From positions 78,128-142,127 of IMG/VR virus record IMGVR_UViG_3300021399_000006: a stretch of 64,000 bases of DNA. The stretch is one strand, 5' to 3'. Position numbers and translations under genes: made by a program. Under the pieces are notes generated by a model that was not told the DNA's origin, did no database searches, and saw only the letters and a program-made list of their open reading frames with translations. Shown here in pieces: positions 51,374-56,501 of this stretch. The DNA is from a virus. The first letter of the stretch is position 1. Each line of letters starts with the position of its first letter.

Positions 51374-51622
51374 ATGTATCAATTTTATACAGCAGAGATA
51401 ATTAAAACACAGTCAGGCGAGTTTGAACATGATATCCACTGGTATTGGGATGAAAATGAACACCAAGCACAACTTAAAGGCGAAGCAAAGTTTCACGAGA
51501 TATTATCAAGGGCGGCAACCTCTGAATACGCAGAACATGCCGCTATCCTTTTTTCATCTAAAGGGAATCGTATTATGGATAAGTGTTATTACCATACAGC
51601 GGAGGTGATGGATAATGCTTGA
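51374..51622 (+). CDS. Small protein, paralogue of 56220..56501
   Basis: ...QAQLKGEAKFHEILSRAATSEYAEHAAILFSSKGNRIMDKCYYH aligns with ...RARLKGESKFYEILSAAAVSELPVHAAIMFTSEGVPVMNQRYVH. Confidence 0.4.
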   Translation: MYQFYTAEIIKTQSGEFEHDIHWYWDENEHQAQLKGEAKFHEILSRAATSEYAEHAAILFSSKGNRIMDKCYYHTAEVMDNA

Positions 51623-51992
51623 TATTAAAAAACTCCTTACAAAGATGTTGAAAAGGATAGCATTCAAGCCCACACAATTATACAACACTCGGACGGATGC
51701 AACAAAAGTTGGTACAGCTTGGGAATATCATAAGCACGCTTTTCTCGCAGATTGGGATATGATTGCAATTAGTTTTGTAGTGCATGAACATATTGAAGTG
51801 TTTTATATAGTAAGAGGCGATACTCTTGAGAGAGGTCTCACAGACTGGCCTGATGCAGGTAAATTCAGAGGATCATTATATGTTGACTGGGCTAACAACC
51901 AGATCGGTATCAGGGCAATAAATGCGGGAACAAACGGGTCGCACTACAATTTAATTCATTATCAAATTATATATGGAATAATCCCACATTAA
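51615..51992 (+). CDS. Hypothetical protein (125 aa)
   Basis: ORF track; in the higher-GC module. Confidence 0.35.
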   Translation: MLDIKKLLTKMLKRIAFKPTQLYNTRTDATKVGTAWEYHKHAFLADWDMIAISFVVHEHIEVFYIVRGDTLERGLTDWPDAGKFRGSLYVDWANNQIGIRAINAGTNGSHYNLIHYQIIYGIIPH

Positions 51993-52022
51993 ATAAACAT
52001 TAATTAAACGAGGTGAATAAAC

Positions 52023-55000
52023 ATGGCAAATAATGATAATATTATTTATGCTAAATTTAATCATGGTCGTGAAATAACGACTGATTCACGCTCTCAGTAT
52101 GCTTATGGGCAGGTGTTAAAAATAAGCGGACTGCACTTGCCCGCTAGTTTTGATGCAGATATTTCAAATAAAGGTGATAAACAAGCAAAAGTTGTAATAG
52201 GAACAGACAATGAATTACCAATAGATGATGCGTTCTTCTTGTCAGGTAAAGATGTTATCGTAATGATCAATGTACATGCCGCAGATAAAGATGGACGCAC
52301 TAAATATATTATCAGGATTCCTGTTGAAAAACGTCCTGAACGTGCGGATATTGAGGTAGAACCTGTTGAACAGGATGCTATATCTGTTGCTATTGCAGCT
52401 ATGAATGAAGCGGTTGAACAAACATCGGCAAGTGCGGAAAGTGCCGAAAATAGTGCAAATCGTGCTCATGAATCAGCAGTAAATGCAGAAACGTCAGCAA
52501 CTAGCGCATCTAATTCAGAAGCATTAGTACAGCAATATATGGAGCGTGCAGAGACTGCCGCTGAAAATGCTGAACAATCTGAAACAAAAGCAAAAACTAG
52601 TGAAGATAATGCAAAAGCGTCTGAAACACATGCTGAACAAATTGCTACTGAGATCGAACAATATACAGGACGTGCGGAAACCGCTTCTACGAACGCCCAA
52701 TCTTCTGCTTCAACCGCAACGCAAAAAGCTACTGAGGCATCAGCATCCGCAAGTACTGCTTCAACTAAAGCAAATGAAGCATCAATTTCCGCAACAAACG
52801 CACAGAACTTTGCGGATAATGCACAGCAATCTGCTACAGACGCACAAGAATCCGCAAGTTCTGCATCAGCGTCCGCAAGTAGAGCATTAGTAAATGCAGA
52901 GAAAACACAAAGTGATAAAGAGATAGTCGAACTTGCTAAGTCTAATGTGCTATCAGCTGTAGGTGAAGCGCAGAATTATGCTACGACCGCACAATCCGCA
53001 AGTCAGGCTATTCAAGATATGAATGTGCAAGCAACCACATTAGAATCTGATTCTAATGCTACTGTTGAAAAAAGTGTTGATCCTGTGACTGGCACAGTCA
53101 CGCTTACTTATGGTATCCCTAAAGGAGTTAAAGGCGAAAAAGGTGACAAAGGAGACCAAGGAATCCAAGGTGAACGTGGAGAAAAAGGCGATAAGGGTGA
53201 CACTGGATTAAAAGGTGATAAGGGTGACGCTTTTACATATGCCGACTTTACACCTGAACAATTAGCATCTCTTAAAGGTGAAAAAGGAGACAAGGGCGAT
53301 GCTGCCATTACAGTCGATTCCGTCCCCACACAGGGCAGTACAAATGCTGTACAGAGTGGCGGTGTGTATGAGGCGTTGCAGAACATTGATATTACAACAG
53401 ATACAACATTAAGTGTATCCGGCAAGCCTGCGGATGCAAAGGTGGTGGGAGACGAATTTTTTTCCGATACAAGCACCGAAACACCTATTGCACTAACTAC
53501 AACAGTTGGTAACTGGAGGCTTAAAACAGACGGTTATGCGGAGCAAAATGCGTCATACAATCTCAAAAAATATCAGGTAACAGCAGGGGATACCATAAAG
53601 GTTGTTTCTGATGATTATTTCCAGTTCCAAACATCTGCAAGCGTACCGACAAGCGGCACTCAAAGCATAGTTGGTGAGACATATACCACGGGCACGTTTA
53701 CACTTGAAGTTCCTGCTACAGCTACATATTTGATTGTGTCCACGCCAAAAACAAACAGTCAGGCAACTGTTTTTAATTTGGTGGTTGGTGAAAGAGTTAG
53801 CAAAATCGGAGCATTAACCGACAGACTTGACGCTATTGATACAGCTACTACATCAGATGTTGGTAAAGTTCTCAAGGCTAAGACCGTCACTAATGGTAAG
53901 GTGGCCGAGTGGGAGTTTGGTGATTCTGAAGCGGTTGAGGAATTACAATCTCAGATGCAGACGGTCGTATCTACAAGCTACGATTATTCGGGCAACCTTG
54001 CAGATACAACAGGAGCAGTTAAAACAGGGCAGTATACAAATTATGTCGAATTTGATTTGGTAGGGGATGGAACGTATTATTCCAATCCTTATGCCTTGGG
54101 TATTAATACAGATAGTAGCGCAAAGTATGAAGTTTACTTATTAGATGCAAACGGTGAAACGATTACTGCCACAAGAACCTCTGACGGAACGACTAAAACA
54201 AATATTGGTTTTGATTATTCAAAAATACGTTATACGTTCAATGGTGCAAATGTTACGGTTGCTGTTTATCTGCGGAACGGCAACGTAAATACTTATGAAT
54301 ACACATTGTCTGCAACCCCGGTTAAGGTTAAATATCGCACAAGATGGTGGGATGCGGATAAAGCACAGATTAATGGATTTACATATGGATATTCGTCAGA
54401 AACATACGTGCCTTACTCTGCTCCGTCAAAAGTGTATTCACCGAATCCCGATTTTTTGGATGAGATTAAAGACTACTATGTAGCAGACGGATTTATCGAC
54501 AAAACGTTAAGCATAGAAGAAAGTGCGGCTGACGCTAAAGTGGTGGGAGATGAACTCTATGACCGCAAGGGTGTTTCTTTTGATACCGTAACTGGATGGA
54601 TAAGGTCAACCAATGGTGCATTAATAACAGACAGTGATTATACCGCAACAGATTATATTCCGGTTACTCCGGGAGAAGTCATAAGGGTTAATCGCCCGTC
54701 TCTTATCAAACAGACCGATAATGCGTTTTATGGCGCAACTAAAAGTTATGTGTCTGGACTTACTACACCGCTTAATATTAATGATGTTACAGTTCCGAGT
54801 AATGCGTATTATGTACGGTTTTCTGACATGAATAGTGGTATGGTCGGATTCTCGGTTGAACGGACTGGATTGTGGACGCGAATCCGCGATGCTATCACTG
54901 AATCAGGGGGTGAATCCGAATACAGAAATCTGATTGAACAGTCAAGATATGGAAGTAAAGTATTAACCTTGCTCCACTTCTCAGACTTGCACATGGACGC

Positions 55001-55886: not shown

Positions 55887-55908
55887 GTATGGCTAAGAAA
55901 GGACTGAT

Positions 55909-56202
55909 ATGCTTACATACTGCTTTGAATCCTCACACGTACCACGCACGCTTGCCAAATGCCGGAAGAATGACCTTGCCGTGGTAGATACGGAAGGACA
56001 CGAAAAAGCCGTGCGAGAGGCTGTAAGCCGTGGCGTGTGGGTGTACGGATACTTGAACGTAGGGGCGTTGGAAAAACAGCGTCCCTATGCAGAGCCCATC
56101 CACTATCAACTCACTCCCCAACAAATCCTTACTCTCAAAGGCACTAACAACGTTTATTCTGATATGAATGGGCAGACAGAAATTAAATATTGGAAACATT
56201 AA
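55909..56202 (+). CDS. Hypothetical protein (97 aa)
   Basis: ORF track; higher-GC module. Confidence 0.3.
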   Translation: MLTYCFESSHVPRTLAKCRKNDLAVVDTEGHEKAVREAVSRGVWVYGYLNVGALEKQRPYAEPIHYQLTPQQILTLKGTNNVYSDMNGQTEIKYWKH

Positions 56203-56219
56203 TTTAGGAGGAAATAATT

Positions 56220-56501
56220 ATGACTCAATACTATATCATGGAACTTCAAAAATATGCGGACGGTTCTTACGGTGACATTAAACATATAGCGTATGACGAA
56301 GACCCCACAAGAGCAAGACTTAAAGGCGAAAGTAAGTTTTATGAAATTTTATCGGCAGCCGCTGTAAGTGAATTGCCAGTACATGCCGCTATCATGTTTA
56401 CATCTGAGGGTGTACCTGTGATGAATCAGAGATACGTACATGCGATTCCGCAGGTTGAACCTGAAACACCTGAAGAAGATGTAACACCTGAAGGTGAGTA
56501 A
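56220..56501 (+). CDS. Small protein, paralogue of 51374..51622
   Basis: See the alignment given above. Confidence 0.4.
   Translation: MTQYYIMELQKYADGSYGDIKHIAYDEDPTRARLKGESKFYEILSAAAVSELPVHAAIMFTSEGVPVMNQRYVHAIPQVEPETPEEDVTPEGE

Follow-up and report, generated by a model that had tools for sequence, protein, structure and literature searches.

A tail-fibre-type protein ending in a metallophosphoesterase domain, within a standard-code block of a TAG-recoded phage

Introduction

The host-range genes of Streptococcus thermophilus phages encode modular fibres that exchange their distal parts at collagen-like repeats. On the cellular side, the PhoD protein of Bacillus subtilis, which has a purple-acid-phosphatase-like fold, reportedly degrades teichoic acid. 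Tail-borne phosphodiesterases aimed at teichoic acids are also known, and those described have the GDPD fold, as in the petal domain on phage 812/K's central spike, or in the enterococcal tail-associated GDPD lysins (PMC13433997, PMC10194240). Late-gene recoding, in which a phage departs from the standard genetic code, has already been described in gut phages (bioRxiv 10.1101/2021.08.26.457843; PMC9523058; PMC10607447). The locus considered here lies in a 64,000-nucleotide (nt) stretch of viral DNA (IMG/VR record IMGVR_UViG_3300021399_000006, positions 78,128 to 142,127), hereafter the window, which consists of phage DNA of ~31% GC with a strand switch at ~36.1 kb. An open reading frame (ORF) at 52023-55886 of this window encodes a 1287-amino-acid (aa) tail-fibre-type protein, the C-terminus of which is a metallophosphoesterase (MPP) domain. 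An earlier annotation of this DNA, called here the original prediction, had described an enzymatic fibre within a TAG-free, higher-GC module acquired horizontally, and associated with a duplicated small gene.

A tail-fibre-type protein with a C-terminal metallophosphoesterase domain

The fibre gene, like every gene and domain located below between 45854 and 56501, is on the + strand. It starts at an ATG with a GAGGTG ribosome-binding site upstream, and stops at a TAA. The identical 1287-aa protein is present on five independently assembled contigs (four of them of 50-200 kb), including one of 124,767 bp at 223x coverage and an independent Logan assembly, so that the long fused ORF is neither an assembly chimera nor another artefact.

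The MPP domain itself occupies residues 982-1287 (54966-55886). Pfam Metallophos (PF00149) aligns with residues 982-1202 over profile positions 2-190 of 191 (E 2.9e-6, 28.3 bits, cut-off 21.5), and the MPP motifs are found at D988-x-H990, G1017-D1018, G1043-N-H-E1046, H1139 and G1198-H1199-E-H1201. The original prediction had read a full MPP motif set at this C-terminus, and all motifs are indeed present, with PF00149 above its gathering threshold; alignment of the motifs to an MPP profile, chosen beforehand as the refutation test for this call, succeeded, and the call stands. Searching residues 932-1287 against 5.8 billion proteins recovers 43 homologues at 27-48% identity. In a 27-homologue alignment, D988, H990, D1018, N1044, H1045, H1139, H1199 and H1201 are invariant, the same catalytic columns are invariant in 60 and 50 further family members, and a family-specific YYYKD motif is likewise invariant. 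Such conservation of the catalytic residues across so wide a range of identity argues for selection on catalysis.

An AlphaFold2 (AF2) model of the domain, built on the homologue alignment, has a predicted local distance difference test score (pLDDT) of 86.8 and a predicted template modelling (TM) score (pTM) of 0.88, and its predicted fold is a four-layer alpha/beta sandwich. Compared with the PDB by Foldseek, it gives 52 matches at E<=1e-3; MPP-fold proteins make up almost all of those listed. The top matches (Lmo2642, SMPDL3B and SMPDL3A, a zebrafish dimetal phosphatase, purple acid phosphatases, GpdQ and Rv0805) have E-values of 5e-10 to 8e-8, a probability of 1.00, TM-scores of 0.43-0.51 and 10-17% identity, while Mre11/SbcD nucleases are weaker (E 5e-6 to 1e-3). 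At the profile level, the MPP family matches SMPDL3A at E 2.7e-7, then SMPDL3B and acid sphingomyelinase (ASM); the SMPDL3A match covers ~125 core positions (~103-228), and the TM-scores to ASM/SMPDL3 are 0.43-0.47. A single-sequence search of PDB sequences with the domain returned no match, and no NCBIfam model matched it in a scan. Judged from the modelled fold and the profiles, these neighbours would favour the phosphodiesterase/acid-sphingomyelinase-like branch of the MPPs over the nucleases.

The N-terminal part of the protein has the makings of a fibre. Residues 1-110 (52023-52352), a putative anchor domain, match only phrog_16164, which has no annotated function (N-terminal positions 4-111, E 3e-7). 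They are followed by a heptad, coiled-coil-like shaft (residues 111-365, 52353-53117), composed of 22% Ala, 15% Ser, 12% Glu and 11% Thr, whose apolar residues recur with a sharp 3.5-residue periodicity, and then by collagen-like G-X-Y runs (residues 368-427, 53124-53303), with 12 uninterrupted triplets at 368-403 and three more at 419-427. These runs are too short for the Pfam collagen triple helix repeat model (PF01391), which gives 25.1 bits, below its cut-off of 27.2. The periodicity and the 15 triplets confirm the Ala/Ser/Glu-rich coiled-coil shaft and the Gly-X-Y runs that had been proposed. Many PHROG tail-fibre families match the shaft, the genes upstream of the fibre match tail PHROGs, and relatives show the same gene order. 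The sequence evidence supports a tail-fibre-type protein that ends in a complete, apparently catalytic MPP domain.

Exchange of the distal module

Relatives of the locus were fetched using the 834-aa tail protein encoded upstream and the fibre stem as queries. Where the genes are present, these relatives share one gene order (C-terminus of a 570-aa protein, 407-aa protein, smallA, orf125 homologue, fibre stem; the genes preceding the stem are described further below). Fibre residues 1-427 are common to the relatives at 67-93% identity (72-93% in viral contigs L038-L043), and every relative aligns up to LKGEKGDKGD (residue ~427), with complete divergence after this point; at the DNA level, identity stops at 53146-53302, and the left recombination junction lies at the end of the G-X-Y runs. 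In the relatives, the stem genes end after 464-806 aa; one or more distal fibre genes come next as separate genes, then, in most relatives, smallB-type genes, and lastly conserved membrane proteins that may be holins. On the right flank, DNA identity (96.7% to L038 and L040) resumes at nt 56179 and continues through smallB. The alignments thus place the swapped module distal to residue ~427 (nt ~53304 to ~56180).

The swapped-in region that separates the junction from the MPP domain (residues 428-981, 53304-54965) has no match in any close relative, and no Pfam family was found in it by scanning. It holds two 'TLS..G..ADAKVVGDE' leader motifs (with ADAK at 470-473 and 836-839), which also head the distal fibre proteins of relatives and other MPP-bearing proteins, and another MPP-tipped protein, from viral contig L019, shares 44% identity in its N-terminal part with residues ~465-587. 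The equivalent site of relative L041 carries other enzymes: a distal fibre protein (735 aa, L041:11745-13952) with a Peptidase_M14 zinc-carboxypeptidase domain (E 1e-23), and, in the next gene (L041:13977-14468), a 163-aa partial GH114 (E 4e-12, 46.3 bits, profile 9-132 of 231). The site thus exchanges enzyme-bearing modules.

Between the fibre and smallB lies orf97 (55909-56202, 97 codons), which resembles two different sources: its first ~70 codons (nt 55900-56106) match residues 4-73 of the GH114-like 163-aa gene of L041 at 59% identity, and nt 56089-56199 match, at 65% identity, the 37 residues that close the terminal fibre gene of L038. By these resemblances, orf97 is a chimeric recombination scar and probably not a functional gene. 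A small GH114 enzyme was also considered for orf97, and is ruled out since the frame is a chimera of two unrelated gene ends; its GH114 match is below threshold (E 0.017, 14.8 bits, cut-off 27, profile 17-62 of 231).

Base composition was calculated over the same region. The four 1-kb intervals at 52-56 kb have a GC content of 0.41-0.45, the four highest in 64 kb (z = 2.9-4.2), against a mean of 0.308 in the remaining intervals (standard deviation 0.033, maximum 0.379), and GC at third codon positions (GC3) is 0.31-0.49 for the genes in 51374-56501 versus 0.13-0.20 for most other genes. The higher GC of the original prediction is therefore real, non-uniform on calculation and accompanied by a raised GC3. 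Along the fibre, GC3 rises from 0.22 to 0.32-0.42 at the swap junction: the stem has values of 0.22-0.23, residues 431-940 of 0.32-0.36, and the MPP domain of 0.42; orf97 reaches 0.49. The high GC of the stem is mostly due to its Ala/Gly/Glu-rich amino-acid composition, and that of the distal part to foreign codon usage. Horizontal acquisition, as originally suggested for the whole of 51374-56501, consequently needs to be narrowed: it holds for the part distal to residue ~427, where relatives diverge, and smallA, orf125 and the stem, which are conserved in relatives at 85-93% identity, did not arrive as a separate recent import. Import of the whole 51374-56501 as one recent piece is ruled out by this conservation.

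Elsewhere in the window, a gene on the - strand (60243-61751), encoding a 502-aa protein that matches DUF7788, DUF2828 and, weakly, VWA, has a GC3 of 0.33, well above its neighbours, and may be another compositionally foreign gene.

Distribution of the domain in viruses and bacteria

How common are such proteins? An exhaustive family-profile search over 1.84 billion cluster representatives (50% identity clusters) finds 8789 hits at E<=1e-3, of which 5170 remain at E<=1e-10 and 2175 at E<=1e-30. Proteins of 500-1500 aa with the MPP domain at their extreme C-terminus make up most of the best 150 matches. The domain is carried by 19 IMG/VR viral contigs, where it nearly always ends proteins of 640-1200 aa, one of which (L010, 1198 aa) has collagen repeats too. 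Two homologues, P0003 and P0014, are encoded by the last gene of a phage tail module with an integrase gene next, followed on the P0003 contig by holin and lysin genes. The sole phage family model matching the MPP domain of the window is phrog_7158, an unannotated PHROGs family (E 8.6e-8), the match being limited to the C-terminal half of the domain; phrog_7158 also matches 29 of 50 long family members, and a minority of these 50 match tail-fibre, tail or virion-structural PHROGs in their N-terminal part. A metagenomic protein of 1557 aa (P0164) apparently has two MPP domains: it is matched by the family profile in two stretches, the best of them at 1194-1544, and by phrog_7158 at 625-867.

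Deposited phages give the opposite picture: a tblastn search with the MPP domain, covering 50,697 of their genomes, gave no match at E<=1e-3, and a DNA search with 51374-56501 against deposited phages gave just ~60-120-nt collagen or coiled-coil matches in unrelated tail-fibre genes. No fusion to a fibre is indicated in the titles and abstracts listed by literature searches on MPPs and tail fibres or receptor-binding proteins, and the papers examined among them concern MPPs of DNA metabolism. In the literature searched, the MPP fold is thus undescribed at a fibre tip, enzyme-tipped modular fibres being themselves already known.

The family also has cellular members. Short homologues (350-380 aa) with lipoprotein signal peptides occur in Bacteroidales metagenome-assembled genomes from herbivore guts. 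One of them directly follows a hybrid two-component system (HTCS)-like regulator, beside SusC/SusD, and ten loci of short members hold together five SusC-like receptors, six GlcNAc-2-epimerase-family genes, three sugar transporters and two ROK kinases. From this gene content, several of the Bacteroidales loci look like glycan-utilisation loci.

A candidate surface-polymer phosphodiesterase and its alternatives

The nature of the phage and of its host matters for any functional proposal. The phage would be a large one (~125-133 kb, its full genome being represented by contigs in ERZ12302851 and SRR873602), distantly SPbeta-like, of a gut or rumen Firmicute. YorL of SPbeta-group Bacillus phages shares 38% identity with the 1325-aa DNA polymerase of the phage, in an alignment spanning 98% of this polymerase. 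The nearest kin of the 834-aa tail protein are phage proteins from Blautia, Faecalimonas, Oscillospiraceae, Christensenellales and Bacillus hosts, and ribosome-binding sites are strong and of AGGAGG type. Together, these features of the sequence make a Gram-positive Firmicute host likely.

The explanation that we prefer, with a probability of roughly 0.55, is that of a fibre-borne, virion-located MPP enzyme cleaving a phosphodiester-linked glycopolymer of the host surface; its enzymatic activity, virion location, trimeric state and substrate are what we infer from the data above. The protein would form a trimeric tail fibre, whose conserved stem (anchor, coiled coil and collagen-like repeats) attaches to the tail, and whose distal half (~428-1287) can be exchanged as a module and was joined in frame to the collagen repeats by recombination with a higher-GC donor. 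The tip of this module would be a catalytically competent dinuclear MPP of the phosphodiesterase/acid-sphingomyelinase-like branch. Carried by the virion, it may bind and cut phosphodiester (or phosphomonoester) links of a surface glycopolymer, candidate substrates being wall or lipoteichoic acid (LTA), a sugar-phosphate capsule, or the phosphodiester anchoring a secondary cell-wall polymer. Cleavage would then be a receptor-binding or receptor-destroying step giving the tail access to the wall. The signal peptides of the Bacteroidales homologues and their loci resembling glycan-utilisation loci count in favour of this proposal, as they would point to an extracytoplasmic, glycan-linked substrate.

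Several observations weigh against it. TM-scores (0.43-0.51) and identities (10-17%) to solved MPPs are modest, so that these neighbours, whose substrates range over nucleotides, lipids and glycerophosphodiesters, do not reveal that of the fibre domain. The glycan-locus context concerns about half of the ten loci, and Bacteroidales homologues at ~30-35% identity. The PHROG tail-fibre matches coincide with coiled-coil and collagen sequence of low complexity, and a teichoic-acid or capsule chemistry cannot be attached to a host.

Does the domain cut another substrate, or does it cut at all? It could be a nuclease or nucleotide phosphodiesterase that acts on DNA or RNA of the biofilm matrix, or on extracellular nucleotides, and so eases access of the virion to the cell. 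MPPs include nucleases, Mre11/SbcD are detectable as fold neighbours, and Lmo2642, Rv0805 and SMPDL3A, among the top fold neighbours, act on nucleotides. However, the scores of nuclease-type MPPs fall 3-5 orders of magnitude short of those of the phosphodiesterase, purple-acid-phosphatase and acid-sphingomyelinase group, no DNA-binding capping domain appears in the Pfam scan, and the cellular homologues sit near sugar-utilisation and not nucleotide-salvage genes, which leaves this alternative rather unlikely. The domain could instead serve mainly as a receptor-binding head for a phosphorylated ligand, with little or no turnover: distal fibre domains primarily bind, catalytically dead enzyme folds are reused by phages as binders, and the invariant YYYKD motif could be a binding platform. 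Such a head is improbable in our view, as metal-ligand and catalytic residues are all invariant down to 27% identity in both phage and cellular members, a pattern unexpected for a pure binder.

A lipid substrate is suggested by SMPDL3A, SMPDL3B and acid sphingomyelinase, which are the best profile matches and rank high by fold too. An acid-sphingomyelinase-like enzyme would hydrolyse head-group phosphodiesters of the LTA anchor, of phospholipids or of sphingolipids, but this is quite unlikely, given a profile match limited to ~125 core positions, no saposin-like or membrane-docking element in the Pfam scan, and a Gram-positive host on which a fibre tip reaches wall polymers long before the membrane. 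Hardly to be expected, finally, is a non-virion protein, released or lysis-associated and simply encoded in the tail region, even if relatives have putative holin genes directly after the fibre cassette: the 427-residue N-terminal stem is shared with relatives whose stem genes bear other distal parts, the protein has no signal peptide, and a coiled coil followed by collagen is typical fibre architecture. The fibre-borne phosphodiesterase acting on a surface glycopolymer is retained in what follows as the preferred explanation.

A standard-code block within a recoded phage

The fibre gene belongs to a segment that differs from its surroundings in its use of TAG. Upstream, the 3065 codons of five long + frames at 36285-45839 include 58 in-frame TAG (5-22 per frame) and zero TAA or TGA, and when TAG is read as sense, three of the four frames scanned match phage protein families (E 5e-22, 7e-40 and 2.5e-11). 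That these frames are pseudogenes is ruled out by the same two features, namely 58 TAG yet no TAA or TGA, and matches to phage families. Downstream, six in-frame TAG occur in the gene at 59618-60106; its counterpart in relatives, at 66% identity, is TAG-free and has E, Q, T, N, K or D at the aligned positions. With TAG read as sense in the flanking genes, its absence in between is meaningful: 45854-56501 has 0 TAG in 3398 codons, versus ~64 expected (P about 1e-28), and all genes of this interval stop at TGA or TAA. The closest relatives of the block use the standard code throughout. In one of them (L025), the 834-aa protein is 94% identical and the DNA 89% identical from nt 45585, with no DNA similarity upstream. 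On this codon usage, 45854-56501 is an ~11-kb standard-code tail-fibre block within a TAG-recoded phage, with the MPP swap nested inside. The TAG-free module of the original prediction (51374-56501) does lack in-frame TAG; its limits were drawn too narrowly, the block being larger.

The fibre genes of recoded phages can themselves be recoded. Two viral contigs of 202 kb (L035) and 185 kb (L037), which encode relatives of the 834-aa protein at 37-39% identity, have tail genes that are TAG-recoded throughout, including those of the fibre region (2-22 in-frame TAG per gene), so that fibre genes free of TAG are not the general rule among the recoded phages of this group. In the 64-kb window, no suppressor tRNA was found. 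A cluster of four tRNA genes on the - strand (62768-63175) comprises Arg-TCT, Arg-ACG, Trp-CCA and one unassignable by ARAGORN (four-base anticodon 'gcat'), and contains no CTA anticodon.

To the right of the block, ~3.1 kb (56502-59617) between smallB and a conserved 'MGL.ELIE' membrane-protein gene are missing from all relatives, in which the two genes are adjacent. This segment encodes small Asn/Gly/Cys-rich proteins (for example 57383-57931, 58181-58618 and 58602-59033), three of which were scanned against Pfam with no match, and some of its frames have one in-frame TAG, the use of TAG as sense extending to 57365-59231 as well.

Neighbouring genes and small paralogues

The TAG-free block opens with the gene of the 834-aa tail protein (45854-48358), which matches the tail-protein family phrog_3267 (E 1.3e-42). 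The next gene (48420-50132) encodes a 570-aa tail or host-range protein that matches PHROG families for tail, host range and adsorption (E 1e-14 to 1e-9) and shares its C-terminal 99 aa with L026 and L030 at 92% identity. It is followed by the gene of a 407-aa putative adhesin (50137-51360), made of BspA-like leucine-rich repeats (Pfam DUF285, 33 bits for a cut-off of 25; NCBIfam PARCEL repeat, 50.6 bits for a cut-off of 30), and found at 50-74% identity in L026, L028 and L030. Repeats of this DUF285/PARCEL kind are a typical feature of surface proteins in Firmicutes. Directly upstream of the fibre, orf125 (51615-51992) is the conserved partner of smallA; it has no family match in Pfam, PHROG or NCBIfam scans, is 92% identical in L027 and L042, and has more distant copies in L028, L040 and L041.

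Two small genes border this arrangement, smallA (82 aa, 51374-51622) and smallB (93 aa, 56220-56501), the latter being the right-hand conserved flank of the variable fibre region. They are true paralogues, as had been proposed (46% identity over 74 aa, E 2e-22), and each follows a fibre or adhesin gene, again in line with the earlier description: smallA begins 13 nt past the 407-aa gene and overlaps orf125 by 8 nt, and smallB lies 334 nt past the fibre stop, with the 97-codon orf97 intervening. At the same positions in relatives, smallA is 85-88% identical in L026, L028 and L030, and smallB, at the end of the fibre cassette, is 80-99% identical in L038, L039, L040 and L042. The family comprises at least 236 unnamed proteins of 80-110 aa with 19 invariant positions.

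The AF2 model of smallB (pLDDT 89.7) is a beta-beta-alpha-beta-beta arrangement, very confident for residues 1-73. Its comparison with PDB folds gives nothing significant (best E 0.19), and its BFVD matches are all uncharacterised viral proteins. The T4/RB69 Dmd antitoxin and RNase PH fragments, which appeared as fold neighbours, were dropped as non-significant (E 0.2-0.6). As the small proteins have no Pfam, PHROG or NCBIfam match, and correspond to no known chaperone family or fold, the chaperone identity first given to them is not upheld.

The small genes also recur in other settings. On unrelated contigs (L066-L071), the small gene overlaps a gene of 127-134 aa that precedes the next fibre, and in three of these (L066, L068 and L069) it comes after LRR_5/DUF285 genes. 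It always follows a large adhesin or fibre gene, and smallA is equally the first of a pair preceding the next fibre. Some relatives have two tandem small genes, each after an adhesin gene, and L041 has none. Judging from these arrangements, smallA would be the first gene of a conserved pair, formed by an overlapping small gene and a ~125-aa gene, that precedes a fibre. The duplicated fibre-plus-chaperone cassette once envisaged does not hold, because the genes upstream of smallA and smallB are unrelated and both paralogue lineages, which predate the divergence of these phages, are conserved across relatives; no recent duplication of a cassette took place. No small-gene homologue was found beside the MPP genes of other viral contigs, and the small genes are thus not specifically linked to the MPP module. 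Their position alone hints at a part in fibre assembly or attachment, a doubtful assignment for the time being.

Significance and comparison with known systems

Beyond this one phage, it may tentatively be supposed that MPP-tipped fibres are widespread, unrecognised receptor-destroying enzymes of phages in gut and rumen viromes, cutting sugar-phosphate or teichoic-type polymers of Firmicutes, and that their Bacteroidales kin, secreted lipoproteins of glycan-utilisation loci, harvest such phosphoglycans. If this were true, a major factor in host range would have been overlooked in these ecosystems, namely the phosphodiester-linked wall polymers. Enzyme-tipped fibres set which bacteria can be reached, and are a source of depolymerases for biotechnology. 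A single characterised member would give a function to thousands of unannotated proteins, as well as a clue to the phosphorylated surface polymers that act as receptors in uncultured gut Firmicutes. The presence of a TAG-free host-range block in a TAG-recoded phage bears in turn on the way a change of code constrains mosaicism.

The architecture recalls the modular fibres of S. thermophilus phages, in that the stem gives way to the variable part exactly where a G-X-Y run ends, and relatives carry other distal modules, enzymes among them. In contrast to that case, the swap seen in the window is fused in frame, and lies within a block that crossed a genetic-code boundary. The enzyme domain shares its signature motifs and sandwich fold with the PF00149 superfamily (Lmo2642, GpdQ, Rv0805, SMPDL3A/B, acid sphingomyelinase, purple acid phosphatase), but unlike the solved members, to which it is 10-17% identical, it has its own YYYKD motif and is fused to the C-terminus of a phage fibre. 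PhoD, as it is reported to act, would provide an MPP-like-fold precedent for the hydrolysis of wall teichoic acid, and purple acid phosphatases are among the top fold matches of the window domain; PhoD is nevertheless a secreted cellular enzyme and not a virion protein, and neither the Pfam nor the NCBIfam scan returned a PhoD match.

The closest functional analogy is offered by the GDPD tail enzymes of staphylococcal and enterococcal phages, in which a phosphodiesterase carried by the tail is proposed to cut teichoic acid during adsorption or penetration. GDPD (PF03009) has no match in the Pfam scan at E<=0.1, and the two systems differ in fold and in place: GDPD is an alpha/beta barrel on the baseplate spike, whereas the window encodes an MPP sandwich predicted to stand at the tip of a long collagen and coiled-coil fibre. 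Where the known tail phosphodiesterases use the GDPD fold, an MPP at the fibre tip would thus represent a different catalytic scaffold.

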